Assembly: GCA_001776935.1 (NCBI GenBank)
Contig: MFDN01000005.1
Span: forward strand, 68,893 to 132,892
Direction of reading: 5' to 3'
Source of the DNA: Candidatus Daviesbacteria bacterium RIFCSPLOWO2_01_FULL_39_23
GTDB taxonomy: Bacteria > Patescibacteriota > Microgenomatia > Daviesbacterales > UBA10151
DNA length: 64,000 nt
Shown here: piece after piece, positions 16,910 through 41,910 of the stretch
Position numbering within the stretch: position 1 is the first letter of the stretch
How the letters are laid out: every line of letters begins with the position of its first letter
Program-made: the position numbers and the translations under genes
The notes under the pieces: generated by a model
Seen by the model: the letters and a program-made list of their open reading frames with translations, nothing else
Told to the model about the DNA's origin: nothing
Databases searched by the model: none

Positions 16910-17218
16910 CTATTTGAAAACTCCTGAAAAAAGCAGAATCAGGACAACAGCAGTCATAATTGCAAAGATTCCAACAGTTTTAACAAACAGGTTTACTGCT
17001 TCTTTTTTCTTACCTTCAATAAAAAGTAGAAATGGTTGATAAAAAAACAGGAACGCCATGACTGCTGCAGAAAGGGTAAACACGAATAAGGCCGTGATCG
17101 GGGCAAAAAAAGTATCTGGTTTATTCTTTAAAGGTTGCGTCACAAAGGTCATAACAGAGACAACAAGGATTATATAGGCTGAAGCACTCAGTGCATTAAT
17201 AATAGGATTTTTGGACAT
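16910..17218 (-). CDS. Small membrane protein (3 TM)
   Basis: 102 aa, hydrophobic. Confidence 0.35.
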   Translation of the reverse strand: MSKNPIINALSASAYIILVVSVMTFVTQPLKNKPDTFFAPITALFVFTLSAAVMAFLFFYQPFLLFIEGKKKEAVNLFVKTVGIFAIMTAVVLILLFSGVFK

Positions 17219-17289
17219 ATATTAATTATACCAAGCTGGCTCTGTTTAATGTCGGATGTTAGAACTTATTATTCTAAACAAGTTTTTGT

Positions 17290-17778
17290 TTAAGCTGACT
17301 TAAAGTGTTCCACCACTCCATTTAGCATTTGGCGGACACACCATTTAGCATACATATCCCCAAAAAGAACTCCCAATAATTTAGAAACTCCTGTTGGGAA
17401 GTCGTAATCAATAAATATCTTTAATTTCGATTCCTCGTTTTCAGGAACTATCTCTACCCCCATTTGATAGTTCCCAATCACAAGTAGTGTTACATTCCCA
17501 ACTGTTTCCCATGCTTTTCGATGTGGCGGATTATATTCAGTAACAACCTCTTCCAGAAAGAGATTTATTCCCAACACCTTACCGCTCATTCGAATGTGTG
17601 AGCCTACTTTTTGCCCATTGCCTTCATCTACCTGCGTTTCCATTTTTCCTCCACCCATCATCCACGAGGACTTATTCATATGTGATGAGAAAGCATTATG
17701 GTCATCAATGAAATTAAAAGCATCATTAGGAGATGCCTGAATCAGAGCAGCTTCCTGGTAATGATGAGAATACGTCAT
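17290..17778 (-). CDS. SRPBCC (START/polyketide-cyclase-like) ligand-binding protein
   Basis: 162 aa; size and beta-grip-like pattern consistent with the Polyketide_cyc2 family; no database confirmation. Confidence 0.45.
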   Translation of the reverse strand: MTYSHHYQEAALIQASPNDAFNFIDDHNAFSSHMNKSSWMMGGGKMETQVDEGNGQKVGSHIRMSGKVLGINLFLEEVVTEYNPPHRKAWETVGNVTLLVIGNYQMGVEIVPENEESKLKIFIDYDFPTGVSKLLGVLFGDMYAKWCVRQMLNGVVEHFKSA

Positions 17779-17852
17779 GCTTTAAGTATATCAATAGTTT
17801 GAACTGTCCATTAGGGGTAATAAAAATTTAAGGCTAAAATTACTGGCTCCAC

Positions 17853-18006
17853 GGATTTGGCAAACTTACTTGTTTTAAAGGATCTTCGACAAAAGAGGAC
17901 TGGTTATATTGGAATCGCAGAATGCCTATAAACCAATATTTATCTAATACCTATCTTCCAAATACCTTTTTCCCTAAAAGCCGGTACAGTTTGACGTTTT
18001 GCCGCA
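17853..18006. repeat. Repeat copy 2 (blocks B then A) overlapping the fic 3' end and its downstream region
   Basis: See copy 1; here block A is the genuine 3' end of the fic gene. Confidence 0.6.
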
Positions 18007-18812
18007 TTTAAAACTACAGGAGCTGGTTTACCGGTCTTTATTGCATACTCAGTTGCCTCAATAATCTTACTACCCTTCAAGTAGGCTATTCTTTTATGTA
18101 AAGCTTCCATAAGTGCAAGCGATATCAGTCTCTCCATTATTTGAGTTTTTTTGTCATCACGAAACTCTATAAAAGAACTGTAATAATCTGTTTTTTCTTT
18201 ATCGCGGATAATTATACCCGGAAAACCGAATCTATAAAGCTGATAATTTATAATTACCCGTCCAATTCTGCCATTACCATCGTTAAAAGGATGAATTGTT
18301 TCGAATTGCAAATGGAATTTAGCAACCTTGTCTGCAAAATATGTACTTTGATCGCTTGAGTATTCAATTAAAGCTTCTTCAATCATTCTTTCTATATGCT
18401 CCGGAGGCGGAGCAATAAAACTGCCAACGCGCACATATTCCCCTTTTTTACGTAATCTGCCGGCAATCTTTTCATCAATATTTCCTATTAACATCTGATG
18501 AAACAACAATATAGTTTCTTTGGAAAGTTCTTCCGCAATCTTACCCTGGATATATTCCATAACCCGAGCTAAATTTTTTGCTTCAAACACTTCACGTAAG
18601 GAGACATTTTTTGATATTTCCATCTCTAGAAGGATTTTTTCGGTTTCTTTAAGAGTTAATGTGGAGTTTTCTATAGCATTGGAGTTATAAACACTTTCTG
18701 GGATTTCAGCTTCATCAATAATTTTAAGTAAAGACAGCTTGCCTATCTTTAAACGATCATATTCTTTTTTTAGGGTTTCTATTCTTTTTTGAAGGAAAAG
18801 AGGAGTTGGCAT
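17940..18812 (-). CDS. Fic-family protein (class II, canonical motif)
   Basis: 290 aa. HPFNDGNGRIGR (HPFx[DE]GNGRxxR) plus an N-terminal inhibitory-type SNAIEN motif. Confidence 0.85.
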   Translation of the reverse strand: MPTPLFLQKRIETLKKEYDRLKIGKLSLLKIIDEAEIPESVYNSNAIENSTLTLKETEKILLEMEISKNVSLREVFEAKNLARVMEYIQGKIAEELSKETILLFHQMLIGNIDEKIAGRLRKKGEYVRVGSFIAPPPEHIERMIEEALIEYSSDQSTYFADKVAKFHLQFETIHPFNDGNGRIGRVIINYQLYRFGFPGIIIRDKEKTDYYSSFIEFRDDKKTQIMERLISLALMEALHKRIAYLKGSKIIEATEYAIKTGKPAPVVLNAAKRQTVPAFREKGIWKIGIR

Positions 18813-19011
18813 GATGAAATTATTATATCAGATTCACGTTATTTTGTCAAATTAGCGTGAATCGACTGCCATTTACGGTATAAATTCATGCTTTTTGACT
18901 CAAGAAGCGTAATTTTAATATGAGCACGCTCCTGCTTTGCAGTAACCATGAGTTTATTACATATTATCAAGATATTGACTCCTGCGTATCATTATGATAC
19001 GCTAGAAACAT

Positions 19012-20064
19012 ATGAATGATACGCAAGTAAACAACCGGCAGACTAAATTACTGGAATTTTTATTAGTAAACTCTCCGTCTTCAAGATCCAAAATCGAAAA
19101 CCTCCTGAAAGATGACAATGTTTCCCGAATAACCATTATTCGAGACTTAAATTATCTTATCAGCGTTGGTTTAATTGAACAGGTTGGGGGCGGTAAGTAT
19201 GTAAAATACCGTCTCAAGCCAGAGAAAGAATTACTTATTCCCATAGATCTAGAAAAATACTTCTCGACAGTAACCGATACTAGAAAAATCAAATATCCTA
19301 CATTTAATTTTAATTTGATTAATCGTTTGATGGGGTTATTTTCCAAAGACGAATTGGAGTTGTTTGAGACTGGAAAGGACAAATTGAAAAATAAATTTTC
19401 TTCCTTGGACAAAACTATATTAAAACGTGAACTGGAAAGGTTTACGATTGAACTTTCATGGAAATCTTCCCAAATAGAAGGCAACACCTATTCTCTCCTC
19501 GAAACTGAGGAGTTAATAAAAAATAAAAAGGAGGCAAAAGGACACGATAAAAGTGAGGCAATAATGATTCTCAATCACAAGGCAGCCTTTGACACGATTT
19601 TAGAAAAGAAAGAGAGCTTTAAAGAAATCTCGGTTGCGGACATTAGGAGGATTCACTCGGAACTGGTAAGAAAATTGAATATAAAATCTGGAATTAGGGA
19701 ATCTGCCGTGGGAATTACCGGAACTAAATATCGACCCCTAGATAATAAATGGCAAATAGAGGAAGCTCTAAATAAATTTGTGGTTCAGACAAAAAAAATC
19801 AAATCAGTACCAGAAAAAGCTTTAATTTTTCTAGCTGTTATTGCTTATTTGCAACCTTTTACTGACGGCAATAAAAGAACCTCCAGAATGATCAGCAATG
19901 CAGTTCTCCTTTCAAACGGCTATTATCCTCTTTCCTATAGGAGCGTAGACGAAGTTGAATATAAAAAGGCTTTAATTCTTTTTTATGAACAAAATAATCT
20001 TTACCATCTAAAAAGAATCTTTTTAGAACAACAACGTTTTGCGATCGAAAACTACTTTCTCTAA
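19012..20064 (+). CDS. Fic-family protein with N-terminal winged-HTH and a degenerate active-site motif
   Basis: 350 aa. N-terminal DeoR-like wHTH. Fic core reads QPFTDGNKRTSR (His to Gln, Gly to Lys), so it is probably catalytically altered. Confidence 0.7.
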   Translation: MNDTQVNNRQTKLLEFLLVNSPSSRSKIENLLKDDNVSRITIIRDLNYLISVGLIEQVGGGKYVKYRLKPEKELLIPIDLEKYFSTVTDTRKIKYPTFNFNLINRLMGLFSKDELELFETGKDKLKNKFSSLDKTILKRELERFTIELSWKSSQIEGNTYSLLETEELIKNKKEAKGHDKSEAIMILNHKAAFDTILEKKESFKEISVADIRRIHSELVRKLNIKSGIRESAVGITGTKYRPLDNKWQIEEALNKFVVQTKKIKSVPEKALIFLAVIAYLQPFTDGNKRTSRMISNAVLLSNGYYPLSYRSVDEVEYKKALILFYEQNNLYHLKRIFLEQQRFAIENYFL

Positions 20065-20350
20065 ACAGAAAGATCAACGACTGGCTCAAAACATTGGAGC
20101 GACATACAAGGAAGCTGACGACCAACTGAAACGCTACTACCTCAATTTGTTCTTTGGAGGTGGTGGTTTCTTTGTTAAGGATGGAAAGATTGTCAAAGCG
20201 AAGCTCTCAAACGACGTAAAACCCCTCATCAAAGATGGGTCAGTTCGAGTAAGAATGAATTGGCTCGAACGATGGTATGTTTTCCGAAGGACAGACTGGG
20301 TAAACTACCTGGAATATCCAGAATTTACAACTAAGGAAGTGACTAGGTTT

Positions 20351-21151
20351 TTACAAATCTAGCTTGCTAGCCTCTTTGTTTACTCGACCGACTTCGCCAA
20401 GATAGCGTTTTGAAAGATTGTTAAGCTGTTTTGCAATTCCTAGCTTCAGTAACTTATTAGATCTTTCCACAATCGTTAAAAAGAAATCAAATGAGGCAAT
20501 GAGGTCTTCCTCCACCCAGCTTTCACTCCGTCCAATGTCTACGGTATAACCTTTATCATGAGCCTTAACATAATCATTCATTGTTCTGACAGCCGAATGG
20601 GTGATATTGGATTGCAAATAATAAACGGTTTGATAAGCTCCCTCTCTACCAATCTCCTCCGCCATTTGCCTGATTGGTTTATCAGACCATCCCATTCTGC
20701 CATAATTATGCTTTTCCTGAACCAGCTTGGCATATTTTTCTACCTCTTCGATAGTAGTATCCCCAGGTTTGGGGTGAAGTTTCCTCTCCTCAAATAGCTT
20801 TGCGAAGGTAGGCACAGTTTTGGCGTAATCATACATTTTTTTCCTTATTATCGAATCATAATGGAAATATCTTAAAACTCTTTTGTTAGTAGGATCTTTC
20901 AGGATATAAAGGAGCGTAATTGAAAGATCAAAAAGAGAGCGGGTTAGTATTGCAGCGTCCTCACCATACCCCTGCGCACAAAGAAATAAAATAGCGCCAT
21001 GAGTTTTATAAGCCTTACCAAACATAAAGGTGCTAAGAGCAACTTTTGGAGTAATTTTGTGAAACTCCTTGTTCATAACACTATCAACTATCTTCCGAAG
21101 CTCTTCGTTAAAATCAAAGAGGTCTTTGTGTTTCTGATAGATTATATTTGG
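20351..21151 (-). CDS. Hypothetical protein, last gene of the candidate defence operon
   Basis: Probable start at MPNIIYQ (ATG overlapping the stop of the upstream gene); about 266 aa; no recognised motif. Confidence 0.45.
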   Translation of the reverse strand, partial: PNIIYQKHKDLFDFNEELRKIVDSVMNKEFHKITPKVALSTFMFGKAYKTHGAILFLCAQGYGEDAAILTRSLFDLSITLLYILKDPTNKRVLRYFHYDSIIRKKMYDYAKTVPTFAKLFEERKLHPKPGDTTIEEVEKYAKLVQEKHNYGRMGWSDKPIRQMAEEIGREGAYQTVYYLQSNITHSAVRTMNDYVKAHDKGYTVDIGRSESWVEEDLIASFDFFLTIVERSNKLLKLGIAKQLNNLSKRYLGEVGRVNKEASKLDL

Positions 21152-21158
21152 CATAGAT

Positions 21159-21833
21159 TTACCTTTCATCGAGGGCATAAGGACGAGTAATGGCACTAGG
21201 GGGAACTTGCCCACCACCTGATTGCGAAGAAGAAGTTGATGCACAGGTGTTTGTTGAAATAGGTTTTGGATAACCGCTTGCACCACTTGATCGTGTCGTG
21301 GAGGTTACAACCCTAATTGGAAGCTGATCGATCAAATCCTTATACCGAGAGTTTTTATTACCAATAGAATTTTCAGCTTGATTTACCCTTTGGGTATATT
21401 TATCGTCCTCTAATTCCTGCTTAAACTTGTCCAAAGATTCCAAAAAGTCATTAACTAGGGTTTCTGCATCTAGAACTGCCCCTTCGACTTCTTTATAGAC
21501 AGCTGGTTTCCCTCCATCTCTGCTTATACCACCCCTTGCGAAATATTCGTGTGCCAACCCATTTCTAAAAATATCCCTAAGAATTTCTACGGGGTAATCG
21601 CTTGGGTTGGTAAAACACTTGGAAATATACTCCTGGACACTTTGGGCGAAACTGGTGTAACGACCCAGAAGGAAGCTGCCCAAATATTCCATGTAGGCTA
21701 AAACACAAAGGGCTAAGGGGAAGTTAATATTCCCAATCGCAGCGGGCTGCGGTCTTATTCTGTCCCGCATATTTTCTAAGTCTTTTTTAATGTAACCAAA
21801 GACTACTGTGCCTAAGAATGTCTGCCTATCCAT
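21159..21833 (-). CDS. HEPN-like protein (Rx4H motif), third gene of the candidate defence operon
   Basis: 224 aa. FRNGLAHEY fits the HEPN R-x4-6-H motif; C-terminal S/T/G-rich tail. Confidence 0.4.
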   Translation of the reverse strand: MDRQTFLGTVVFGYIKKDLENMRDRIRPQPAAIGNINFPLALCVLAYMEYLGSFLLGRYTSFAQSVQEYISKCFTNPSDYPVEILRDIFRNGLAHEYFARGGISRDGGKPAVYKEVEGAVLDAETLVNDFLESLDKFKQELEDDKYTQRVNQAENSIGNKNSRYKDLIDQLPIRVVTSTTRSSGASGYPKPISTNTCASTSSSQSGGGQVPPSAITRPYALDER

Positions 21834-21835
21834 AT

Positions 21836-23629
21836 TTACTTTCCTTTTATCGAATTAAAGAACTTGCTGACCTCATCTGGTAATCTGCTTAAGTCAATAG
21901 ACTTTATTACTTCAAATTGAAAACCCTTATATGTTAGGTTTTTAACCTTACTCGACTCCGCTGATAGACGGTCATATAGTTTTTTGGTCATTACTTTTCC
22001 GTCAATTTCCATCAATTTAGTTGAGCTGTCCTTTTCTATCGCTTCAAGATGGTTTGTTACATCTTGTGCCTTGTATTGTCTTTCGTCTGAACTGGCGGCG
22101 TCTGCTATCGCTTCAATATCAAAAAGAAAAACATTCTCGAGCGTCTTGTATGGAGTTACTAAAACATTATTGCCAATCTGCCCCAGAACACCTTCGTCAT
22201 CTTTGTCAATTAAGGCTAAGATGTTCAGGGTAGAAGGTTGTTGGGTGAGAGTGCCGATAAATGTCCTAAAAGCATCACTTGTCTGGATTACTCCTGGTTT
22301 ACTCCCAGAACCAGGTTTATTGTCTGTTCCTGCAGGTATGAATACAACACAATTTTTTAGAGGATCTATCAACCTCTGGTAGACCTTAAAGTCCTCTAGA
22401 TGGTCTTTGGCATTTGGGATACCCTCAACATAAACAATCTTAGGGGCAAGAAAGGCTAAATCGAATCTTTTACCAAGAGAGTTGAGAAGCTCAACTCTAG
22501 TGGTCAAATTGTCAACCTTTTCAATAGACTTAGAGTCACTAGTAATCTGATAAACATTCTCGGTGTTAGCGGAAATAAAGTCTGAGGAATGAGTAGAGAC
22601 AAGACAGCTAAAATCCTTCGCTTTAAGAAAAACACCGTTCATAAATTCTGCTAATCTAGTAACATACTCTGGATGAAGGTGAATGTCTGGTTCGTCGATA
22701 AGCACTATCGGTTTGAACGCTTGGCGTTCCCATTGAATTAACATTGCAGCCAAACCGATTACCTGCCGTTCGCCTGAGCTGGCAAACTGGATTGGATAGC
22801 TTCTGTTTATTTTTTTATTAGTCATTCGGAATTTCATTTCCCCTTTCTCAGCTTGAATTTTGTCGAATGAAAGCTCTAGGGGATAAATGATCTCATTGAT
22901 TCTTGAAAGGGTATCTTCTAATTCGGGAAAGGCTACCTTTTGTTGAGAAAAGACTCTCCAAACTGCCATCATTGCTAATCGATTGAGTAGACTACCTAAT
23001 TGAATATTGCTTCTAGTGGTTCTTTGTCTTATGTCAAAATCTCCAGTAACAACCTCTGTCATTTCAACATCACGAGGCGCAGCTCCTAAAAAGGAAGTGC
23101 CTCCCTCGCCAATGTCTTGGAGGGGTTTAACAAACACGCCTAATACTTTATGCCTACCAAGTTCGGATAACCAAGAAGGAATGTCGTTTTGAGAACTGGC
23201 ACCTATGAACTTACGAGTTGATGGTTGCTGAGGAGAAAAGTCAGAAGGTATTGACAGTTCAACAGTAAAAAAATACCTTCCATTTTTCTTCTGAAGGTCG
23301 TTTTGTATCGTTTGCAAAACTGTTTCCCTTGAAGTAAAAGCATTAGGACTTTTTTCAACCAGTATTTCCGCTAGATGTCCAAGGTCGTCATCGCTTAACG
23401 AAACAGAGGCTCGCCACACCGCCTCTGCCCCCGTAATACCACTAACAACTGTCGTATCAATTTGATTTATGTCTACACTATTCAAAAGGAAATTAGCCAC
23501 TTCAAGTATTGTTGACTTGCCTGTCCCGTTCTGACCAGCAAGAACAATAAATCCAGTAAGTTCAGACGCCTTAACTTCAAAGTTCTCAAAACCTCTAAAA
23601 CCAGTAATTTTTATTTCTTCCACTCTCAT
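21836..23629 (-). CDS. OLD-family nuclease-like protein: ABC-type ATPase (AAA_15/21) fused to a TOPRIM-like C-terminal domain
   Basis: 597 aa. Walker A LAGQNGTGKST; Walker B / D-loop VLIDEPDIHLHP; C-terminal IVYVEGIPNAKDH and ALIDKDDEG (TOPRIM-like E and DxD). Confidence 0.65.
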   Translation of the reverse strand: MRVEEIKITGFRGFENFEVKASELTGFIVLAGQNGTGKSTILEVANFLLNSVDINQIDTTVVSGITGAEAVWRASVSLSDDDLGHLAEILVEKSPNAFTSRETVLQTIQNDLQKKNGRYFFTVELSIPSDFSPQQPSTRKFIGASSQNDIPSWLSELGRHKVLGVFVKPLQDIGEGGTSFLGAAPRDVEMTEVVTGDFDIRQRTTRSNIQLGSLLNRLAMMAVWRVFSQQKVAFPELEDTLSRINEIIYPLELSFDKIQAEKGEMKFRMTNKKINRSYPIQFASSGERQVIGLAAMLIQWERQAFKPIVLIDEPDIHLHPEYVTRLAEFMNGVFLKAKDFSCLVSTHSSDFISANTENVYQITSDSKSIEKVDNLTTRVELLNSLGKRFDLAFLAPKIVYVEGIPNAKDHLEDFKVYQRLIDPLKNCVVFIPAGTDNKPGSGSKPGVIQTSDAFRTFIGTLTQQPSTLNILALIDKDDEGVLGQIGNNVLVTPYKTLENVFLFDIEAIADAASSDERQYKAQDVTNHLEAIEKDSSTKLMEIDGKVMTKKLYDRLSAESSKVKNLTYKGFQFEVIKSIDLSRLPDEVSKFFNSIKGK

Positions 23630-24135
23630 ATTAAAAGCTCTCCAATTCGTTTTAATATTTTTCCTTCTGGGGGATAAGCAGAATAAGATGCTTTATCTAT
23701 CTCGAAAGTCTGCCCGTTTTGCTTTAAGACTAGGCGGGGCGTATCGCTGCGATTGTTGTTCCAAACATAACTGTTGCCAGTAAATAAATGATAATCAGCC
23801 CCGATGAAATCCTCTGGAGACAAACTTTCTAGGGGAATTTCACCGCCAGAATGAACCCGCACAATTCGCCCGACTCCAAGATTACCTGAAAATCCCATGA
23901 CTTTTTCCCATACCCCGTTTGGATAGGGAGGCGTATAGGCAACATGCTGGAGTTCAATACTGTTGAGAGAAAAAGACTCGTCACCAATGTTCTTAAAATC
24001 AACCCATTCGCCAGCTAGTTGAGAGAAAGGGACATAATTACCAAGGCGATCTCTGCCAGATGGGTTTGGTTTTACTTGGGTAACATTAAGCCGTTTCATA
24101 GTAATTTTAATCCTTTGTAATGTAGGACTTGACAT
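23626..24135 (-). CDS. Lamin-tail-domain (LTD)-like protein, first gene of the candidate defence operon
   Basis: 169 aa (start may be the internal MKRLNV). VKPNPSGRD...GEWVDFKNIGDESFSL resembles the LTD core (NPxGxD...EWIELxN). Overlaps the ATPase start by 4 nt. Confidence 0.4.
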   Translation of the reverse strand: MSSPTLQRIKITMKRLNVTQVKPNPSGRDRLGNYVPFSQLAGEWVDFKNIGDESFSLNSIELQHVAYTPPYPNGVWEKVMGFSGNLGVGRIVRVHSGGEIPLESLSPEDFIGADYHLFTGNSYVWNNNRSDTPRLVLKQNGQTFEIDKASYSAYPPEGKILKRIGELLI

Positions 24136-24166
24136 TACTGTAAAATTATCATAAAGTTATCATACT
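24136..24166. promoter_or_regulatory. Divergent promoter/operator region between the defence operon and the lexA-like gene
   Basis: 31-bp intergenic segment containing TACTGT and the direct repeat TTATCATA-AAG-TTATCATA; candidate repressor operator. Confidence 0.3.
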
Positions 24167-24766
24167 ATGCCAGTAAAAGTCAAGCCCATTACAGGTAGAC
24201 AAAAAGAGGCGCTCGATTTTATCAATTCCTTTATCCAAGATAATGGATACGCTCCCTCTCTTCGTGAGTTAGCAGCCTTTCTGAAAACCGACAACATTAG
24301 CACGGCTCATTACTTTGTAAAAGAACTTGAAAAGAAGGGTTACCTCAAACGAGATTACTATAAAAACAGAGGGATCACTCCTATTCTTCAAAAACAAACA
24401 GTTCCACTCTTGGGTTATATTGCCGCTGGTGCGCCAATAGAACCAATTGAAGACTCGGAGCCAATACAAGTGCCAACTAACATTAAATTGGCTACAAATC
24501 AGTCTTATTACGCTCTCAAAGTCAAGGGTGATAGCATGATAGATATGGGAATTCTGGACAAAGATATTGTCCTTATTAAGCATCAAATGACAGCAGATGT
24601 CGGCGATGTGGTTGTGGGAATTACAGAAGACGGAGCAACTCTAAAAATTCTAGGAAGAAAAAATGGAAAAACTATCCTTGAACCACGCAACATAAATTAT
24701 AAATCAATAATTCCTAGACAACTTGAGGTTCGAGGAGTTTTTGTAGGTTTAATAAGGGCTGAATAA
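24167..24766 (+). CDS. lexA: LexA-like autocleavable repressor (HTH plus S24 peptidase)
   Basis: 199 aa. N-terminal wHTH (RQKEALDFI...PSLRELAAFL), Ala-Gly cleavage site (IAAGAP), catalytic GDSM and a conserved Lys. Confidence 0.8.
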   Translation: MPVKVKPITGRQKEALDFINSFIQDNGYAPSLRELAAFLKTDNISTAHYFVKELEKKGYLKRDYYKNRGITPILQKQTVPLLGYIAAGAPIEPIEDSEPIQVPTNIKLATNQSYYALKVKGDSMIDMGILDKDIVLIKHQMTADVGDVVVGITEDGATLKILGRKNGKTILEPRNINYKSIIPRQLEVRGVFVGLIRAE

Positions 24767-24802
24767 TAAATTCAAAAATTATAGAATAAGGATAAGATTA
24801 AT

Positions 24803-25588
24803 ATGAATTCAATTAATGACTATCTCAATAAAATAATTTGCGGTGACTGCATTGAAGTCATGCAGAAGATGCCCAATAAAAGCATCGATCTAGCTGTTAC
24901 ATCTCCTCCTTACAATCTTAAAAATTCTACTGGTAATGGTATGAAAGACGGTAGAGGTGGTAAGTGGGCAAACGCAGCTCTCCAGAATGGTTATAGCCAT
25001 CATGATGACTGTATGCCTCACGAAAAATATGTGGCTTGGCAAAGAAAGTGCTTAGAAGAAATGATGAGATTGTTAAAAGACGATGGAGCAATTTTTTACA
25101 ATCACAAATGGCGTGTCCAAAACGGACTGCTTCAAGATAGACAAGACATTGTTTCGGGCTTTCCTGTACGACAAATAATAATTTGGCATCGCAACGGAGG
25201 TATTAATTTTAATAAAGGTTATTTTTTACCCACCTATGAGGTGATTTATCTAATTGCAAAAAAGAACTTCAAGCTAGCACCAAAGGCAAACGCCCTCGGA
25301 GATGTGTGGGACATGGGACAAGACTTAAACAACCCTCACCCCGCACCATTCCCTGTTGAATTGATTGAAAGGATTATCGGATCAACGACTGCCGAAATTG
25401 TTCTAGACCCATTCATGGGTTCAGGTACAACAGCAGTTGCTGCAAAAAATCTCGGCAGAAAGTATATCGGAATTGATGTCTCTCCTGAATATTGCCAGAT
25501 GGCTGAAGAAAGGATCAAAAAGGGACATTTCAATGGCAAGAAACAACAGGATCTTCTTTCTTTGTTTCCCCAAGACTGTTCCGTGTGA
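24803..25588 (+). CDS. DNA methyltransferase, N4/N6 class (PF01555-like), probably m4C
   Basis: 261 aa. DLAVTSPPYNL (SPPY catalytic motif) and DPFMGSGTT AdoMet motif. Confidence 0.85.
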   Translation: MNSINDYLNKIICGDCIEVMQKMPNKSIDLAVTSPPYNLKNSTGNGMKDGRGGKWANAALQNGYSHHDDCMPHEKYVAWQRKCLEEMMRLLKDDGAIFYNHKWRVQNGLLQDRQDIVSGFPVRQIIIWHRNGGINFNKGYFLPTYEVIYLIAKKNFKLAPKANALGDVWDMGQDLNNPHPAPFPVELIERIIGSTTAEIVLDPFMGSGTTAVAAKNLGRKYIGIDVSPEYCQMAEERIKKGHFNGKKQQDLLSLFPQDCSV

Positions 25589-25606
25589 GATAATTAGCTT
25601 AAAGAT

Positions 25607-26398
25607 ATGCAATTATATACAAAAGACGAACTAATTAAGAAACTGAAACAACTTGCCGAAATGGGTTGGATACCAAATGGGAGATTTGGCAACCACGGAG
25701 GAATCGGCAACACTCTTGAGGATTTTTTGGGTATTACAGAAAATAATTTACCAATACCTAATGCTGCCGAGTGGGAGCTAAAAACACAACGGGCAAACAC
25801 ATCGTCGCTAACAACTCTTTTTCATATCGAGCCATCACCAAGAGCCGTAGGTTTTGTTCCAAAAGTATTGTTGCCACTCTATGGGTGGTCGCACCAAGAG
25901 GCAGGAAAACTTTACAAAGATGGCGAAATGAGTTTCAGGCAGACAATCCACGGACTATCCCACAGCGACAGGGGTTTTATCGTTAAAATCGATCGAGCTG
26001 CCAAAAAAGTGCTTATTTCCTTTGATGCAACCAAAGTAGCAGAAAGACATTCTGAATGGCTTCGGGGTGTTGAACAAAAAATGGGGTTAGGGGAACTCAA
26101 TCCACAACCTTACTGGGGATTCGACGATCTAAAACATAAAGCAGGAACTAAACTTCTTAATTGTTTCTATGTGCAAGCGGAAGTAAAAAAGGAAGGTGAA
26201 AAAGAGTTTTACTGGTATAAAAAGGCGCAAATGCTACAAAAGTTCAAATTTGATGGATTACTGGAGGCACTTGAGAAAGGCGCTCTCCTAGTGGATTTTG
26301 ATGCAAGGACAGGTCACAACCATGGCACAAAATTCAGGCTTAGACAAAATCACCTACCTATGCTCTACGAAAAAGTGACCACCGTTGTGAATTCTTAA
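25607..26398 (+). CDS. Type II restriction endonuclease of the MvaI/BcnI family
   Basis: 263 aa. N-terminal ...AAEWELKTQRANTSSLTTLFH and C-terminal LLVDFDARTGHNHGTKFRLRQNH align by eye with conserved BcnI/MvaI blocks (GEFELK...LTLFH; LVMDLCID...GPHLRI). Confidence 0.65.
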   Translation: MQLYTKDELIKKLKQLAEMGWIPNGRFGNHGGIGNTLEDFLGITENNLPIPNAAEWELKTQRANTSSLTTLFHIEPSPRAVGFVPKVLLPLYGWSHQEAGKLYKDGEMSFRQTIHGLSHSDRGFIVKIDRAAKKVLISFDATKVAERHSEWLRGVEQKMGLGELNPQPYWGFDDLKHKAGTKLLNCFYVQAEVKKEGEKEFYWYKKAQMLQKFKFDGLLEALEKGALLVDFDARTGHNHGTKFRLRQNHLPMLYEKVTTVVNS

Positions 26399-26538
26399 CT
26401 CCCTTAAACAGTTTCCCCCATTTCTAACCGCCTGTGTTGACTTGTGTGGGGCTTTCGTGCCTGGGATGGCATAGTTTCACCTCTGTTTGACTTCAGACCC
26501 CTTGTTTGGCATAGTTGCTGGTTACATAAGGTGATAAC

Positions 26539-26824
26539 TATGAATATGAACCAAAATAGACAGTGTCAGCATAATTTAAGGGCAAAAGCCTTTGGCGAAG
26601 CATTAAAAGAAGGCATCAGGGAAGATGTGATGATGCGGTCTTGTTTTCAGTCAGATTTTTCATTAGACAAACATGAGCGTAAATCCAGGCAAAAAATAGA
26701 AAAACTTCTAAACGGAGATCGCAAGAAGGAAATATCAGAGTGGAAGAAAAACAGTAAGACAAGAGCCGAAGCATCCAGACAAGCATTTATAAGAGGGCTG
26801 AAATCGGGAGACAAAACAGAGTAA
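26539..26824 (+). CDS. Hypothetical basic protein
   Basis: Probable ATG at 26539 within ORF 26444-26824; upstream TTGACT and direct repeats TGGCATAGTT x2. Confidence 0.3.
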
Positions 26825-27008
26825 TTTAGTAGCTACAATCTCTAATTAGCGCCCAGTCTACAGTTTGACCACCCTGAGATCTGTTGATCACGCAGCGCAT
26901 AGTTCCCTTAAACCACAGATACTCCAGTGCTAGGAAAAACATAAAGAACAACAGTCCAACTATGAGCATCTTTTTCATAGGTATTTTTACACTACGACAA
27001 TTGCTGTC

Positions 27009-27740
27009 CTAATTTTCAAACAGCGGCACGGTATTCCAATACTGAATCTGTTTGTTGCCATCAACGGTAATGCGGATGGTCGGATAAGAGTAAGGTCTAC
27101 CCTCTAAGCCTTCGGGCAATTTATAACCCTTGTCTTCCCAGAACCACTGATGTAATTCGCCGCCGTATTTTCCAGAATAAATAAACTGTTCTTTGATTTG
27201 ATCAAAGTTCTTTACTCCTCTGACAAGGTAGCCAAAGGCAACGGCTTCAGCTTCCGTCTTGGTAATCTTCGGCATAGTATTTGAACTTGTGTCTGAGCAA
27301 ATAACACCGTTGCTCTTGTAGCCCTCGATTTCACTGGGTTTGAGTCCCGCTATGACAACTGCCACTAAGGAATGGTTTCTGGAATCAACATGATACTCAT
27401 AAACCGAGCATTGTCCATTAAGTAGTTCCTTTTGGTGGTAAATATCTACTTGGCGTGTCCAACCCTCAACTGCCTCCATATTTTCTCCACCCTCCATCTG
27501 GGTGACTTTGCCAACCCTGAAATATACGGGGAAAGGCACATCCGATTTAACAAAGGCTAACTCCAAAGCAGGTTCTGCCATGAAACTGCGAATGGCTGTC
27601 TCATCTTGAGCGGTATTATCAACTTCTTGTTTGGGTAGTAAAGCAGGAACATAGTTGTTTTTCTTTAACCAGACAAAACCAGTCCCCAAGCCAACCAAGA
27701 TAAGTAAGGTAACGATTATTTTTGTCTTCATATTTTTCAC
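27009..27740 (-). CDS. Secreted/membrane-anchored hypothetical protein
   Basis: 243 aa with an N-terminal signal/TM segment. Confidence 0.4.
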   Translation of the reverse strand: MKNMKTKIIVTLLILVGLGTGFVWLKKNNYVPALLPKQEVDNTAQDETAIRSFMAEPALELAFVKSDVPFPVYFRVGKVTQMEGGENMEAVEGWTRQVDIYHQKELLNGQCSVYEYHVDSRNHSLVAVVIAGLKPSEIEGYKSNGVICSDTSSNTMPKITKTEAEAVAFGYLVRGVKNFDQIKEQFIYSGKYGGELHQWFWEDKGYKLPEGLEGRPYSYPTIRITVDGNKQIQYWNTVPLFEN

Positions 27741-27745
27741 CCCCT

Positions 27746-28414
27746 TTACGGATAGGGCGGATAATCAGTCCAGCCCTCTTCTCCTTGAATAAAATAACGA
27801 CTATCGGTGGTATTACAAACCCTGGGATGCCCAGTGCGCCTAGAAGCCTCCTCGCTGGTGACTTGACCACCATCATGCCCGATAGCTTTAAGGCAGTCAT
27901 CATAGTTATTTACCCAGCTATACTTTGCCTGCATTTGCTCTTTCCAGGTTGGAGCAACATCTCCTCCAGGTAAAAGTGCTGGTGTAAAGGGGTTATATTC
28001 CTCACAACCATGATCACAATCCCTGACGCTGGGTATGCCTTCGTTTAGAAGAATTCTGGCTATCTCCCAAGCGCTCATTGACTGGGAAATATCGTAGGCA
28101 GTCTCGGTATCAATGGTGTTATTGCCAACTTTAATCGCTCCAACCTTACCAGGCGTATTGTCCTTGGTGTGTTCAAGAGCGTATTTAAGAGCTTCTTCGT
28201 CTTTGACGAATCCATAATAAGCAAGATTGCCAGTAACCGCTATAAGGGTATTTTGTTTGTCAACTCGGAACTTAACCACAGGAGCAACTTTGCGAGGCGC
28301 TGCAAATTTATTCTGGGACGACTGATACCAATAGAAACCGCCAACAACAAACAGGAGAACAACAAGCAGGAAAGGAATAGTAATCCTAATCTTATTTTTC
28401 ATCTTTATTGTCAT
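27746..28414 (-). CDS. Secreted/membrane-anchored hypothetical protein
   Basis: 222 aa with an N-terminal TM segment; Cys-containing extracytoplasmic domain. Confidence 0.4.
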   Translation of the reverse strand: MTIKMKNKIRITIPFLLVVLLFVVGGFYWYQSSQNKFAAPRKVAPVVKFRVDKQNTLIAVTGNLAYYGFVKDEEALKYALEHTKDNTPGKVGAIKVGNNTIDTETAYDISQSMSAWEIARILLNEGIPSVRDCDHGCEEYNPFTPALLPGGDVAPTWKEQMQAKYSWVNNYDDCLKAIGHDGGQVTSEEASRRTGHPRVCNTTDSRYFIQGEEGWTDYPPYP

Positions 28415-28614
28415 ATTTTGATATAGTTCGGTATGTTAACTTGCTGTCGAGGAGATTGTCAAATCAAACAGAAAGCTCCCCGCCAGCGATAGCCTTTCGA
28501 CTACCCATACCCCTTTCGGGATACAACCTTCGCAGATGCTCTGACTAGGAGCTTTTATCTGCGAAGGTTTTGATGCCATGCCCTTGCGGGTTTAGGCGGT
28601 TAAATTGTTAAATT

Positions 28615-28806
28615 TTATGGCTTATCTCTGCCGTGCATAAGTTTCAAAATATCTTCTTTTTTATAACGACGGTCTTTGCGTTGACCAAAGCGGACAGACT
28701 GTAAAATGCCTTTTTTATCCCATTGACGAAGAGTATTAGGATGAACACTAAGCAATTTGCTTGCCGCTGATAATGTTAAAAGCTGTGGAACGGTTTGGTC
28801 AGTCAT
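28615..28806 (-). CDS. Excisionase/MerR-type HTH DNA-binding protein
   Basis: 63 aa. LLTLSAASKLLSVHPNTLRQWDKKGIL matches the excisionase-family HTH pattern. Confidence 0.55.
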   Translation of the reverse strand: MTDQTVPQLLTLSAASKLLSVHPNTLRQWDKKGILQSVRFGQRKDRRYKKEDILKLMHGRDKP

Positions 28807-28827
28807 AATTGATAGCGGACTCGCTAT

Positions 28828-29799
28828 TTGTTAACATTAGACTACAATAAGCAACAGTTTATTGCAACTATGACGATGAAAATTGACGAGGAATACAAAA
28901 CCTACACAGCTTTTGTTACGAAACTCGCTGTTATAAAGCAACTCTTGCTTAATCAGGAAGAACCTTCTTATATCTTGGAACGCTACACTCAGAAACACTT
29001 ACTAAGTGAGGAGCAGTTTCAAGGGATACAATCTTTGGTTAACAAAGACAAGAACGAGTTAATAAGACTCTTGGACAAAAGTATAAAAGATTTCATGGCT
29101 GGTAGACATCTCGATAAAATTACAAATCCAGAGCTAATAAAATACTCCTATAAATACCAAAAAGATAACTTTATCAACAAAATCGCAGATTATATAAAAC
29201 AATATGGACTAAAAATACCACTCCATTTCGAGGAGGACGCTTCTCTCTTCGGAGAGAACACAACCAGGATAACCTTCATAGAAACTTTAATAGCCTTAGA
29301 GTCGGAAGGATTTATCTCGATTGTTAGTATTAGAGAAGGGACTTCAAAACCACACGAAATCATTACCGCAGACGCTGGCGTTTGGTCTTTGACCAAAGAT
29401 GAAAACAGAAGTGGTTTTACCGTTTACCCAGTTCCTATTGCTACTATACAGCTTACAAGAAAGTTAATTAGCCTTATCGAGCCCCGACTCTCATATACCC
29501 CTCACAAACTGTCCTTCAAAGGCAAAGTAATTTTTATTCCAGAAGGCGACCAAGATACACTCTGTAGGGTAATTTTGCGAAATAAAAATGCAATGAAAAG
29601 AGAGTGGTCATGGGATGAAGTGCTAGAAAAATCAGGAGAAAGAAATATCGACACAAATATGTGGCGCAGGGTTTATAACGCAGGGCGTGAGATCAATAAA
29701 AAAGTGGCAATAGAAACAACAATTAAGGATCTGCTCGATGTTAGAAAGCAGACAATCTCAGTAAACACAAAATATCTGCCATTTCCCCCGAACAAGTAG
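28828..29799 (+). CDS. Hypothetical protein
   Basis: 323-aa ORF in the island; no motif recognised. Confidence 0.35.
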   Translation: MLTLDYNKQQFIATMTMKIDEEYKTYTAFVTKLAVIKQLLLNQEEPSYILERYTQKHLLSEEQFQGIQSLVNKDKNELIRLLDKSIKDFMAGRHLDKITNPELIKYSYKYQKDNFINKIADYIKQYGLKIPLHFEEDASLFGENTTRITFIETLIALESEGFISIVSIREGTSKPHEIITADAGVWSLTKDENRSGFTVYPVPIATIQLTRKLISLIEPRLSYTPHKLSFKGKVIFIPEGDQDTLCRVILRNKNAMKREWSWDEVLEKSGERNIDTNMWRRVYNAGREINKKVAIETTIKDLLDVRKQTISVNTKYLPFPPNK

Positions 29800-29865
29800 T
29801 TAGATAACTTTATATAACCCCTTAGGAGCTAGGCTTATGTTAATAGCCTAGCTTTTTTTATAACT

Positions 29866-30117
29866 ATGAACCAGCAATTAAACGAGAATTACTATCAGAC
29901 CAGCGATCTATCTCTCGCCACAACCCTCTCTTTATTTGCGCCGATAGAAGAAATTGATCGTTCTACTAATCCCCGCAAAGCACTGTTTATCTTCCGCAAA
30001 ACTCCTGAACTGGAGAAGCTAATTGACCAGTATTTCCGAAACGAAATCAAAATCTCGCCTCAGACCTATTTTAATCAGTTGCGTGTCGTGAAGGCACGGC
30101 TCTATGCCAACGAATAA
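29866..30117 (+). CDS. Hypothetical small protein
   Basis: 83-aa ORF. Confidence 0.3.
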   Translation: MNQQLNENYYQTSDLSLATTLSLFAPIEEIDRSTNPRKALFIFRKTPELEKLIDQYFRNEIKISPQTYFNQLRVVKARLYANE

Positions 30118-30264
30118 CTATGATAGATAAAAATTTACTATTGGAACTAAAACAAATCTTAAAAGAAGACTTTGATCTGGAATTAAGCCTCCAGGAAGTT
30201 ACAGAGATAGGCACAACCCTACTGGCTTTTACCGAGACTTTATTAAAAATCGAGTCAACAAACA

Positions 30265-30528
30265 GTGGAGGAAACAGTTATGACGCCCATAGATAAATTT
30301 GTAAGCATTCTAAAACCGCTTTTATTAGCAGGGTGCGGTATTGAATTAACCACAGAAGAAGCGTCGATTGTGGCAAATACGCTGACAGATTTCTTTGAGG
30401 CATTGGCATTAATCGAACACAAAAAGGATTGTCCTAAGAAAGAAAAGCTTGAAGAATACTTGAGACAAAAATGGGGCGGTAAAAGAAAAATTAATATGAC
30501 CATAAATAACCATGATGATCTCAATTAA
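30265..30528 (+). CDS. Hypothetical small protein
   Basis: 87-aa ORF. Confidence 0.3.
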   Translation: MEETVMTPIDKFVSILKPLLLAGCGIELTTEEASIVANTLTDFFEALALIEHKKDCPKKEKLEEYLRQKWGGKRKINMTINNHDDLN

Positions 30529-30868
30529 CGATATAACTATCAAAATTAAACTCTTGAAATCAGAAACCATGCTAGCCCAGGCAACCGTAATACTTTTTGG
30601 TGTCTGGAAAGAACATGGCTGGAAGGTGTTGAGATCTGATCGACCACATCCAAAACATCAAGATTCCCTATGGTTTCAAGCGCCAAGCTATCGACTAGGT
30701 AGTGGTTGGCACGAAATCGTCTTTATCGATGATCTTGATCTATACGAGGCTGTGATAGAGAAGATTTACAACGCCTATTGCCTTGCCAAAAGCAAACAAC
30801 CCGATCAGGGAGAAAAAGAGGAAGAAATCAATCCAGAGGATGTCGATTTAGAAAGCATTAACTTATGA
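30512..30868 (+). CDS. Hypothetical protein
   Basis: 118-aa ORF. Confidence 0.3.
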   Translation: MMISINDITIKIKLLKSETMLAQATVILFGVWKEHGWKVLRSDRPHPKHQDSLWFQAPSYRLGSGWHEIVFIDDLDLYEAVIEKIYNAYCLAKSKQPDQGEKEEEINPEDVDLESINL

Positions 30869-30973
30869 AAAGACATAGTAACTATATAGGGACTTATAAA
30901 GGGAATTTTATAGTAACAATTTTTCCCTTTAAGAGGAAATGTATTTATATAAGTTACTATAGCTAATTTAACT

Positions 30974-31546
30974 ATGAATATCGTTACATCAAAGATACCA
31001 GGAGAACGAGCAAAACAATACGCCGCTTGGCTTCTTTATTGCGAAGTAGGCAGTTTAGAAAAAACGCTCAGGATGTGGGAGCGAATTTCAGCTCAAGATG
31101 ATACCGAAATGATACCGTTTTTTGGGGTTTTCCTGGGTAAACCCGCTGGTTTGGCAACACTCAAACGCTGGTCAGTCAAATATCGCTGGCAGGAACGAAC
31201 TGAGTTGAAAAACACAGAAGATCTGGAAGACATGAGGTTCAAGTTTAAGAGGATTAAGCAAACAAGAGCATATAAAATTGCCATTTTATTAGACAGGGTT
31301 CTTGATAGATTGGGTCGGCAGTTGGATCAAGGCATGTATGTCAGCACAAGAGATCTTTACACGCTTTGGAAGATGCACCGAGTTGAAGAGGGACTGAGTA
31401 TCGGAAACTACCAAGTTATCACTTACCAAGAACCGCCAGCAGAACCAAAAACCCCAGAAGAAATAGAGTTAGACAAGAAGATACAGGAAATAGTCAGTAG
31501 GTATCACAAGAACAACGACAAGGAGGAGCAACCTACCATTACTTGA
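30974..31546 (+). CDS. Hypothetical protein
   Basis: 190-aa ORF upstream of the serine recombinase. Confidence 0.35.
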   Translation: MNIVTSKIPGERAKQYAAWLLYCEVGSLEKTLRMWERISAQDDTEMIPFFGVFLGKPAGLATLKRWSVKYRWQERTELKNTEDLEDMRFKFKRIKQTRAYKIAILLDRVLDRLGRQLDQGMYVSTRDLYTLWKMHRVEEGLSIGNYQVITYQEPPAEPKTPEEIELDKKIQEIVSRYHKNNDKEEQPTIT

Positions 31547-31592
31547 TATTGCCAAACAATTTGTTTATGTTCTGTGTTACATCAAAATTACT

Positions 31593-33275
31593 ATGAAAAC
31601 TGCCATATTCTGCCGAGTAAGCAGTAAAGAACAAGAAGAAACAGGCTACTCCCTGCCAGCTCAGGAGAAGTTCTTGAGAGAGTATGCTGACAAACAGGGC
31701 TTGGAAGTCGCCAAAGTCTTCGCCGTCTCCGAGTCCGCAGCAGGCAAGGTTCAGAGAAAAATCTTCATCGAGATGGTCGCCTATGTCCGCAAGCATACCA
31801 TTCCCACGATTATCGTGGAAACAACTGACCGTTTAACCAGGAATTTCTCTGATGTCCCCACCATTGACTTATGGATTACCGAGAACGAAGAACACCAAGT
31901 CCACCTGGCAAAAGAAGGCTGTATCCTCCACAACTCCTCCCGCTCTCACGAATGGTTTATGTGGCGGGTCAAAGTGGCCACCGCCGAGTATTACGTCCGT
32001 CTTCTTTCAGAGAATGTGAAGAAGGGGCAGAAAGAAAAACTAGCCCAAGGCTGGATCCCCACCAAACCACCACTTGGGTACAAAACAGTGGGTGAAACCG
32101 GCCACAAAATCCATGTCGTTGATGAAGGTGCTTCTAAGCTAGTAATCAAGATGTTTGAGCTCTACGCCTCCGGCGATTATTCCATCAAAAAGCTTGCAAC
32201 CACTATGTATGAAGAAGGCATGCGCTCACCGCAGGGCAACAGACTGGCGATCAGCAGGACCCACTCCCTGCTGCGTGATCCTTTCTATATGGGTAAAATA
32301 AGGTGGAACAATGAGATCAGCGAAGGCAAACATCAACCGTTAATCAGTAAAGAACTATTTGATAAGGTCCAAAATATGCTTGTGAGCAAAACCACCCCTA
32401 AATATATGAAGCACGACTACCTCTTCAAAGGATTAATCCGCTGTGCAGGCTGTGACGGACTGATTACCTGGGAACTACATCGGGGTCATCACTACGGACA
32501 TTGCAACCACTATCACGACTGTACCCAAGAAACGTGGGTCAAGGAACCGGAAACCGAAGAACAACTCTTAGACGGTTTTGATAGCCTCCGCATCAAAAAC
32601 CAGCGGGTAACTGAGTGGCTCAAGAAAGCTCTCAAAGAAAGCCACCAGGACGAAGTTCAATACCACAACAGCACCGTCGGCGATCTGGAAACCCGCTATG
32701 AAGCTGTCAGCAGAAGAATGGACAAGTTGTACGATGACAAGCTCGATGAGAAAATTACTCAGGAGTTTTATAACCGCAAGTTCAAGCAATACTCCAATGA
32801 AAAAGACGAACTAACCGAAACCATCAAACGCCACTCCATCGCCAGCACTGGCTACATAAACTTTGGTATTAATCTCTATGATCTCTCGCAACGAGCCAAA
32901 AACATCTACCTAACCGCCAAAAATAAAGATATGTTGGACGAACAACGAGCACTGATTAGGCTGGTCTTCGCCAAGTTAACGCTCAATGAAGGCAAACTTA
33001 GCTGGGAATACTCCAAGGCATTTAAAATGCTTTCAGAAGCAGTAGCCCAAACCAATTGTTCTAAAGTGGAAAATTTAGAGGATTTTGAAAAAGGAACTTT
33101 CGAACATGCAGAATTGCCCGACAATTCAACACAAAAGGACGCTTTATTGCCTCTGCGTCCCATCTGGCTCCCCCGCGTGGATTCGAACCACGAACCTCGA
33201 TCTTACAGAATTCCACTTGTTACCAAATGGTCTGGACTATCTAATCATCCCAAGATGCGGGAGCCGGGTATATAG
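31593..33275 (+). CDS. Large serine recombinase (resolvase catalytic domain, recombinase domain, zinc ribbon)
   Basis: 560 aa. N-terminal AIFCRVSSKEQ (catalytic Ser); zinc ribbon CAGCDGL...HCNHYHDC. The last ~37 codons run antisense over the tRNA-Asn 3' exon and intron. Confidence 0.85.
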   Translation: MKTAIFCRVSSKEQEETGYSLPAQEKFLREYADKQGLEVAKVFAVSESAAGKVQRKIFIEMVAYVRKHTIPTIIVETTDRLTRNFSDVPTIDLWITENEEHQVHLAKEGCILHNSSRSHEWFMWRVKVATAEYYVRLLSENVKKGQKEKLAQGWIPTKPPLGYKTVGETGHKIHVVDEGASKLVIKMFELYASGDYSIKKLATTMYEEGMRSPQGNRLAISRTHSLLRDPFYMGKIRWNNEISEGKHQPLISKELFDKVQNMLVSKTTPKYMKHDYLFKGLIRCAGCDGLITWELHRGHHYGHCNHYHDCTQETWVKEPETEEQLLDGFDSLRIKNQRVTEWLKKALKESHQDEVQYHNSTVGDLETRYEAVSRRMDKLYDDKLDEKITQEFYNRKFKQYSNEKDELTETIKRHSIASTGYINFGINLYDLSQRAKNIYLTAKNKDMLDEQRALIRLVFAKLTLNEGKLSWEYSKAFKMLSEAVAQTNCSKVENLEDFEKGTFEHAELPDNSTQKDALLPLRPIWLPRVDSNHEPRSYRIPLVTKWSGLSNHPKMREPGI

Positions 33276-37674: not shown

Positions 37675-37701
37675 CAGGTTGTCATAGTGTATAATAATTT
37701 T

Positions 37702-41713: not shown

Positions 41714-41910
41714 TACTTAAACCACAAAAAAATCAGTTGTAGGGTAAGAGCGAGAACCAGCAGTTGATTATATTTATTAAATCGTAACTCGCTTTTTATC
41801 TCTCTCTTACCCCCAACCTGATTAACACCCACTATATAGAAGATTTTTGATAAACAAATAATAATGGTGTAAACATCCGGTAAGAAGCCGCTTGACAAGT
41901 CCAGCAGCTT

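Follow-up and report, generated by a model that had tools for sequence, protein, structure and literature searches.

The lexA promoter as a probable hub of a swap-in defense island in Candidatus Daviesbacteria (Microgenomates)

Introduction

In the genome of the groundwater organism Candidatus Daviesbacteria bacterium RIFCSPLOWO2_01_FULL_39_23, a lexA gene is found between a type II restriction-modification pair on its own strand and a defense operon on the opposite strand. Does LexA control the genes on its two sides? This question was addressed computationally with a 64,000-nucleotide stretch of contig MFDN01000005.1 (positions 68,893–132,892; hereafter the window, with positions counted from its first letter). 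The original prediction, made from the sequence alone, suggested that a LexA-like repressor responsive to RecA and the SOS response controls the restriction-modification pair, the defense operon or both, in place of a classical C-protein. LexA, restriction-modification pairs and damage-inducible defense are each already known. Our results suggest that the lexA promoter is the fixed hub of a swap-in defense island in Candidatus Daviesbacteria, a member of the Microgenomates in the candidate phyla radiation (CPR), a reading to which we give a rough probability of 0.6. The autoregulated lexA promoter would drive lexA, the methyltransferase gene (M) and the endonuclease gene (R) and would overlap a divergent promoter, both being SOS-inducible, which we consider equally probable.

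Results

LexA and the Restriction-Modification Pair

The features of the unit are as follows.

24167–24766, + strand: lexA, 199 amino acid residues (open reading frame and profile matches)
24425–24430, + strand: LexA cleavage site Ala87-Gly88 (invariant in 33 orthologs)
24533–24535, + strand: LexA Ser123, catalytic dyad, in the GDSM motif
24644–24646, + strand: LexA Lys160, catalytic dyad
24767–24802, + strand: lexA-M gap of 36 bp, containing only the −10-like TATAGAAT (24780–24787) and AAGGA
24803–25588, + strand: M, type II DNA methyltransferase of the beta class (PF01555, 4.5e-45; PADLOC MTase_II, 1.8e-125)
25607–26398, + strand: R, type II restriction endonuclease of the MvaI/BcnI family (PF15515, 4.7e-64)

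LexA of the window matched the Pfam families LexA_DNA_bind (PF01726, 5.3e-14) and Peptidase_S24 (PF00717, 3.4e-20) and scored 146.4 bits against the NCBIfam equivalog model TIGR00498, whose cut-off is 110.95. Its N-terminal part is a winged-helix DNA-binding domain, and the closest solved structure is Thermotoga LexA (3k2z), with which it aligned over the full length (E-value of 4e-25). Ala87-Gly88, Ser123 and Lys160 were invariant among the 33 LexA orthologs, which confirms the full autocleavage kit first described for this protein. By these matches, it is a true LexA, whose orthologs are kept throughout the clade, and no accessory protein of the LexA-like kind; LexA-like was the term of the original prediction.

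The placement of the three open reading frames was also as first described: M follows lexA after 36 bp and R follows M after 18 bp, all on the + strand. The methyltransferase contains SPPY and DPFMGSGTT motifs and belongs to the Pfam family N6_N4_Mtase; its SPPY motif suggests that it is probably an N4-cytosine enzyme. An MvaI_BcnI endonuclease domain with an adjacent methyltransferase (PF15515, PF01555) places the pair in the MvaI/BcnI family. The endonuclease aligned with R.MvaI (2oa9) over the full length (E-value of 2.8e-16) and with R.BcnI over the N-terminal 80 residues only, and by these alignments it is nearer to R.MvaI. CCWGG sites were not depleted (109 observed versus 95 expected). 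The absence of CCSGG was considered as a clue to specificity and dropped: the island around lexA, described below, is without any CCGG or GGCC sites, and the CCSGG absence is uninformative on specificity because it is part of this general CCGG absence. Identical LexA proteins with the same gene order were found in several Candidatus Daviesbacteria assemblies and in groundwater metagenomes.

By their spacing and orientation, lexA, M and R are a single tightly packed same-strand unit. The lexA-M gap is free of operator copies and terminators, and the scan accepted no promoter in it (fold of −8.4 kcal/mol, z of 0.27). No terminator-like hairpin was found between lexA and M or after R, the promoter scan of 23500–26900 revealed no strong separate promoter before M or R, and an Rfam scan of 19900–27100 revealed no structured RNA. 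Because there is neither a terminator hairpin nor a scan-passing promoter before M, the three genes are read as a single transcript that would start at the lexA promoter. The terminators behind lexA were also compared between cassette-bearing loci and the others; the comparison was uninformative, and canonical terminators are few in these genomes.

The lexA Promoter and Its Phased Repeats

The promoter region contains the following elements.

24129–24157, + strand: lexA promoter, with −35 TTGACA (24129–24134), a 17-bp spacer and −10 TAAAGT (24152–24157); 10/12 match
24135–24164, + strand: putative LexA operator, three 11-bp-phased TTAYYRTA repeats (conservation, uniqueness in the window)
24135–24142, + strand: first repeat unit, TTACTGTA
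24146–24153, + strand: second repeat unit, TTATCATA
24157–24164, + strand: third repeat unit, TTATCATA

This promoter was the top sigma-70-type match within 23500–26900. Its hexamers and spacing were kept in the 61 distinct orthologous upstream sequences, which were aligned from lexA loci of genomes and metagenomes and which share an architecture of TTGACA, two bases, three 11-bp-phased TTAYYRTA units and ATG. The repeats overlap the promoter from the spacer through the −10 box to the transcription start and are kept irrespective of which genes adjoin lexA. The region upstream of the −35 box is far less conserved. The TACTGT at 24136–24141 and the direct repeat TTATCATA-N3-TTATCATA at 24146–24164 of the original prediction are both present, and both belong to the phased repeats. 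Moreover, ACTGTA and ATCATA interchange at the same repeat positions between lineages, which argues that the units are copies of one element.

The repeats are also specific to lexA promoters. A degenerate two-repeat pattern occurred twice in the window, both times at the lexA promoter, where 0.03 occurrences were expected, and a position weight matrix of the repeat matched only lexA promoters across 674 kb of related loci. These 674 kb are all lexA-proximal and silent on the promoters of recA and uvrA, and the window and the fetched loci contain no repair gene. No second operator copy was found before M, before R, elsewhere in the window or in the 674 kb; weak matches with 3 mismatches at 37690, 41846 and 58293 are no more than chance would give, and the match at 41846 adjoins genes unrelated to repair. 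From the conservation and uniqueness of the TTAYYRTA repeats we infer that LexA binds them. A palindromic operator was considered and set aside, since each repeat is near-palindromic by itself (TAT-N-ATA) and the sequence alone cannot separate a direct from an inverted reading.

In all orthologs, the ATG of lexA is 9 nt past the −10 box and no Shine-Dalgarno sequence precedes it; thus, the lexA mRNA is probably leaderless or nearly leaderless. The methyltransferase genes that abut lexA are likewise without Shine-Dalgarno sequences. On the opposite strand, the repeats read TATGAT, which resembles a −10 box, and the candidate promoters on that strand contain TATGAT or GATAAT from within the same repeats.

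The lexA promoters of the WWE3 sister group (L025–L033 and L039 in our set of loci) possess a conserved TTCG-N7-TTCG direct repeat between −35 and −10, which shares the 11-bp period with the Microgenomates repeats. WWE3 lexA is divergent from uvrB and has a long leader with GGAGG.

The Restriction-Modification Slot in Other Microgenomates

Grouping of the lexA loci at a lexA nucleotide identity of 97% produced 67 groups, and 58 of these have at least 250 bp after lexA. A restriction-modification gene was next to lexA on the same strand in 47 of these 58 distinct loci. The gap ranged from −26 to +46 bp (median of 10) in 44 loci and from 66 to 161 bp in three more. Gaps of 5 bp or less, or overlaps, were found in 21 of the 44, with junctions such as TAAcATG and TAAtATG. 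Methyltransferase homologs were found in the first downstream open reading frame (45/58) and the second (18/45), rarely in the third (1/36) and never in later ones (0/59) or in those upstream of lexA (0/223).

The cassettes in this slot span four methyltransferase classes (Dam, C5, N4/N6 and N6-gamma) and at least six endonuclease families (MvaI/BcnI, Eco57I type IIG, EcoO109I, ThaI plus Vsr, BglI and BsuBI/PstI). Their types by Pfam, which are mutually unrelated, and the right border of the slot are as follows.

PF01555 methyltransferase with an MvaI/BcnI, EcoO109I or BglI endonuclease
Eco57I-type IIG enzyme with M.Eco57I
N6 methyltransferase with TaqI_C, or with a BsuBI/PstI endonuclease
C5 methyltransferase with ThaI and Vsr
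Dam-type methyltransferase
26436–26509, + strand: conserved right flank of the slot, also found behind an unrelated Eco57I-type cassette in loci L009 and L058

Cassette type is scattered across the LexA tree, so the slot persists through many swaps. Among the carriers of MvaI/BcnI cassettes, M and R were 83–90% similar whereas LexA was 72–82% similar, also suggesting lateral exchange of cassettes while the slot persists. The nucleotide homology between loci ends exactly at the slot borders. In WWE3, where lexA is divergent from uvrB, a convergent membrane-protein gene comes after lexA and no restriction-modification genes are found, so the association is specific to the Microgenomates clade.

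The scatter over the tree, the excess similarity of M and R, the homology blocks that end at the cassette borders and the conserved flanks on both sides would all fit a recombination hot spot only. The lexA gene would then merely flank an exchange site, read-through from it would be incidental and the cassettes would use weak promoters of their own, for which the −10-like TATAGAAT is a candidate. Cleavage of LexA would have little effect on the cassettes. Exchange would proceed by homologous recombination between the conserved flanks or through a nearby serine recombinase. A hot spot leaves unexplained, however, why the cassettes are oriented with lexA and start with the methyltransferase, why the gaps are 1–20 bp or overlaps and leave no space for element ends or promoters, and why methyltransferases were in none of the 223 upstream open reading frames while other defense types occur only there. 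We regard it as doubtful, though it is the strongest of the alternatives weighed here.

The regulator-first order raises another explanation, in which LexA is a true substitute for a C-protein that times a newly arrived cassette by holding the endonuclease back behind the methyltransferase. In its favor, the unit begins with the gene of the regulator, whose expression would be autoregulated, no C gene or small helix-turn-helix (HTH) open reading frame was found in the cassettes examined, and the sole methyltransferase with its own fused HTH (L016) is separated from lexA by a long gap of 102 bp. Against this, LexA is resident and not cassette-borne, the cassettes are swapped independently of lexA, LexA precedes M and not R, and there is neither an operator before R nor an activation step. 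A C-protein substitute is thus improbable, and the wording "in place of a classical C-protein" of the original prediction holds as an analogy only, there being no C-box and nothing that shows a delayed endonuclease.

The Divergent Defense Side

The genes and the border on the other side of lexA are as follows.

20261–20361, + strand: left boundary of the upstream slot, C-terminal peptide fragment WLERWY.FRRTDWVNYLEYPEF (conserved in several loci)
20351–21154 (to 21286 with the longest open reading frame), − strand: DUF5677 protein (open reading frame and gene calls)
21159–21833, − strand: hypothetical protein, 224 amino acid residues (open reading frame and gene calls)
21836–23629, − strand: ABC/OLD-type defense ATPase, 597 amino acid residues (AAA_15, AAA_21, SMC_N)
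23626–24099, − strand: stand-alone lamin-tail-domain protein, 157 amino acid residues, first gene of the operon (weak Pfam LTD match; AlphaFold2 model)

These four genes form a tightly packed divergent operon, in which the lamin-tail-domain gene and the ATPase gene share 4 nt, at the stop of the former and the start of the latter. The distance from this operon to lexA had been given as 31 bp, which rests on the longest open reading frame of the lamin-tail-domain gene (169 residues), whose ATG at 24133–24135 is within the −35 hexamer of lexA. The start at 24099 is backed by the gene callers and by most family members, which are 157 residues long, and it has AAGGA 11 nt upstream. With this start, the shared intergenic region is most likely 67 bp (24100–24166).

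The best PADLOC models for the ATPase were AriAB, AriA, mad3 and PtuA, and it is not assignable to a single named system. AriAB, a fused PARIS-like ATPase-nuclease, was the best of them with 84 bits; if this match is real, a system triggered by anti-restriction proteins sits opposite a restriction-modification pair.

The upstream neighbor was divergent from lexA in 57 of 60 groups, and its identity varied. The neighbors included SMODS cyclases with SAVED effectors, similar to cyclic oligonucleotide-based antiphage signaling systems (CBASS), OLD-family ATPase-TOPRIM proteins and AbiV-HEPN, as well as Schlafen/AlbA_2, HerA-like, TPR-PIN, small HNH, DUF2188 and lamin-tail-domain genes. The 157-residue lamin-tail-domain gene itself was the upstream neighbor in 15 fetched lexA loci. 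The fragment WLERWY.FRRTDWVNYLEYPEF was also found at L045:298–363, L048:4304–4374, L057:158–253 (on the contig shared by L050 and L057), L069:59–123 and L107:600–658. The sequences that precede it show no relationship from one locus to another. The fragment is possibly what is left of an integration target.

The Lamin-Tail-Domain Family Outside CPR

The AlphaFold2 model of the 157-residue protein has a mean predicted local distance difference test score (pLDDT) of 92.6, and its top PDB matches are all lamin immunoglobulin folds. Six contexts of this family outside CPR were examined. Three of them place the lamin-tail-domain gene beside an XRE-HTH gene whose M78-type peptidase partner is either confirmed or possible. 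In a fourth, the Peptidase_M78 gene alone was called beside it. The fifth has it divergent from another LexA, and the sixth has no such regulator beside it. Pairs of XRE-HTH and M78 proteins are damage-cleaved repressors of the CapH/CapP, ImmR/ImmA and DdrO/IrrE type. Two of the shared intergenic regions read in these contexts contain clear palindromes. DUF2188 genes are also linked elsewhere to other damage-cleavable repressors. The pairing of one target gene with different kinds of damage-responsive repressor is good comparative evidence for its control by the adjacent repressor.

The lamin-tail-domain family appears from these contexts to be an uncharacterized damage-regulated gene family. 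As a stand-alone protein of about 155 residues (L126, L128, L129, L133 and L135), it occurs in Nitrospira, Zixibacteria and other groups, where its co-neighbors are sometimes DUF2188, DUF3892, Schlafen or E1/E2/JAB genes.

The Compositional Island Around lexA

A compositional island encloses lexA and both slots.

19719–32097, strand not applicable: compositional island with lexA and both slots, free of CCGG

The GGCC-free stretch extends from 17091 to 31975 and the CCGG-free one from 19719 to 32097, which makes 12–15 kb around lexA, and the flanks have about 4 CCGG per kb. The island also has very few CGCG, GGWCC and GTAC sites and three times as much TCGA as its flanks. The pattern resembles an avoidance of restriction sites by DNA that has been exchanged laterally, and a weaker dip in restriction sites around lexA was seen in the pooled relatives. 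The region 28615–33275, between the restriction-modification slot and rpoD (34569–35660), contains a MerR/HTH_17 excisionase-like gene, several hypothetical genes, a DUF5659 gene and the gene of a 560-residue large serine recombinase (31593–33275), inside which the island ends. The loci L011, L014 and L022 have similar recombinase genes in the corresponding position, and several lexA loci were near rpoD. The island itself, with its excisionase-like gene and its serine recombinase, is a further point in favor of the hot spot considered above.

The island also suggests that LexA could be a dedicated, island-borne repressor that regulates only island genes or island mobility, similar to CI, SetR and ImmR, with the SOS response proper under another lexA or absent. 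Consistent with this are the position of lexA within the 12-kb zone without CCGG and GGCC and the confinement of the operator, which is at no other promoter in the 674 kb. In addition, the Roizmanbacteria contig Ga0210019_1000107 contains two complete lexA modules (L050 and L057) that are 7.6 kb apart and have identical promoters and operators. One has a TPR-PIN gene on the divergent side and a C5 methyltransferase downstream, and the other has a lamin-tail-domain gene and an Eco57I-type cassette, respectively. However, LexA passes the TIGR00498 equivalog model, orthologs with the same promoter are found in many Microgenomates lineages, several of them near rpoD, and the LexA phylogeny does not follow cassette type. 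The 674 kb are lexA-proximal throughout and silent on recA and uvrA promoters. Finally, no Microgenomates-type lexA was found on the viral contigs of IMG/VR, which also led us to reject a prophage origin of lexA. We consider a dedicated repressor unlikely, more so than the hot spot and less so than the C-protein substitute.

Elsewhere in the window, ARAGORN identified a tRNA-Ile with the anticodon TAT at 2828–2899. Such a tRNA-Ile is uncommon in bacteria.

Discussion

Proposed Mechanism and Its Strength

In the reading that we prefer, LexA dimers would bind the three phased TTAYYRTA repeats at the −10 box and transcription start, which would put the lexA-M-R transcript under negative autoregulation. 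As the same repeats would overlap the divergent promoter, the operon of the lamin-tail-domain protein and the ATPase would be co-repressed. DNA damage or phage-induced DNA breakage would give rise to RecA filaments, which would stimulate LexA to cleave itself at Ala87-Gly88, and the restriction-modification pair and the lamin-tail-domain/ATPase operon would then rise together.

The predicted control of the neighbors by LexA has gained strong comparative support from the cassette slot, from the operator-like element that is confined to the promoter and from the pairings of the lamin-tail-domain gene. In 24767–24802, the gap that the original prediction also proposed for binding, no operator was found. 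Several other observations weigh against the hub. No recognizable restriction-modification gene was behind lexA in 11 of the 58 loci. The −10-like TATAGAAT at 24780–24787 is a possible weak internal promoter for M and R. The repeats also contain promoter elements, which bears on their putative operator role. Moreover, the compositional island that encloses lexA also has a serine recombinase, and two lexA modules are found on one contig, so lexA may be island-borne and not a global SOS regulator.

A broader generalization is more tentative, and we would put it somewhat below even odds. The canonical LexA of the Microgenomates could be the master switch of a modular immune locus, in which promoterless, methyltransferase-first cassettes of any type plug into the lexA operon and abortive-infection-type systems (CBASS, OLD, AbiV and lamin-tail-domain/ATPase) are placed divergently under the same operator. 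SOS would then be an infection alarm that couples restriction to second-line defenses, and selection would act on the slot architecture and not on any one cassette.

If the hub is real, restriction-modification and the other anti-phage systems of a whole candidate-phylum group come under the classical SOS repressor itself, with no need for dedicated regulators of the kind of C proteins, CapH/CapP or BrxR. There would be a concrete link from DNA breakage by restriction to the induction of back-up immunity, and a natural promoter-and-operator platform that accepts unrelated cassettes. A testable rule for the discovery of CPR defense genes would also follow, which is to inspect both sides of lexA. 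In addition, the stand-alone lamin-tail-domain protein is flagged as an apparently damage-regulated gene family in several phyla.

Comparison With Known Systems

Our literature search found nothing direct on LexA with restriction-modification or defense islands in CPR, and no report of restriction-modification cassettes systematically in a lexA operon or of lexA as a two-sided defense hub, although the Patescibacteria SOS-network paper of 2017 may touch on it. A Patescibacteria LexA motif was published by Sanchez-Osuna et al. (2017), as cited in PMC8565304.

Similar to the canonical SOS system of Escherichia coli, LexA of the window belongs to the same family, has the same catalytic and cleavage residues and would have its operator over its own promoter. 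In E. coli lexA-dinF, the gene downstream of lexA is SOS-inducible. Different from E. coli, the downstream genes here are restriction-modification cassettes that differ by lineage, the putative operator consists of three 11-bp-phased direct repeats and not of CTGT-N8-ACAG, and the mRNA is apparently leaderless. The 11-bp periodicity, seen as TATC-N7-TATC here and as TTCG-N7-TTCG in WWE3, resembles that of the LexA boxes of Alphaproteobacteria, which are direct repeats of GTTC-N7-GTTC (PMC8565304). The half-site sequence differs, however, and the putative operator here has a third, upstream repeat.

As in the C-protein systems (C.PvuII, C.AhdI and C.Esp1396I), the restriction-modification genes would share a transcription unit with a DNA-binding protein that is encoded ahead of them and that would be autoregulated. 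LexA, however, is not of the XRE type, possesses a predicted self-cleaving peptidase domain and outlives cassette swaps, and the unit has no small HTH open reading frame and no operator copy before M or R.

Further parallels are with CapH/CapP, BrxR/CapW and DdaA of Moraxellaceae, which are divergent from many defense operons, including CBASS and DUF2188 operons. The CapH/CapP paper likewise describes DUF2188 operons and the divergent layout under CapH/CapP. A damage signal raises defense expression under all three, and DdaA also controls restriction-modification systems. The divergence from diverse defense operons is shared by lexA here (57/60). Different from these systems, the regulator is a single canonical LexA, with predicted RecA-stimulated self-cleavage by its S24 domain, and not a pair of HTH and M78 proteins or a WYL protein, and the restriction-modification genes would be within the operon of the regulator itself. 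By analogy, and on the reading preferred here, LexA would play for this island the role that CapH/CapP, BrxR/CapW or DdaA plays elsewhere.

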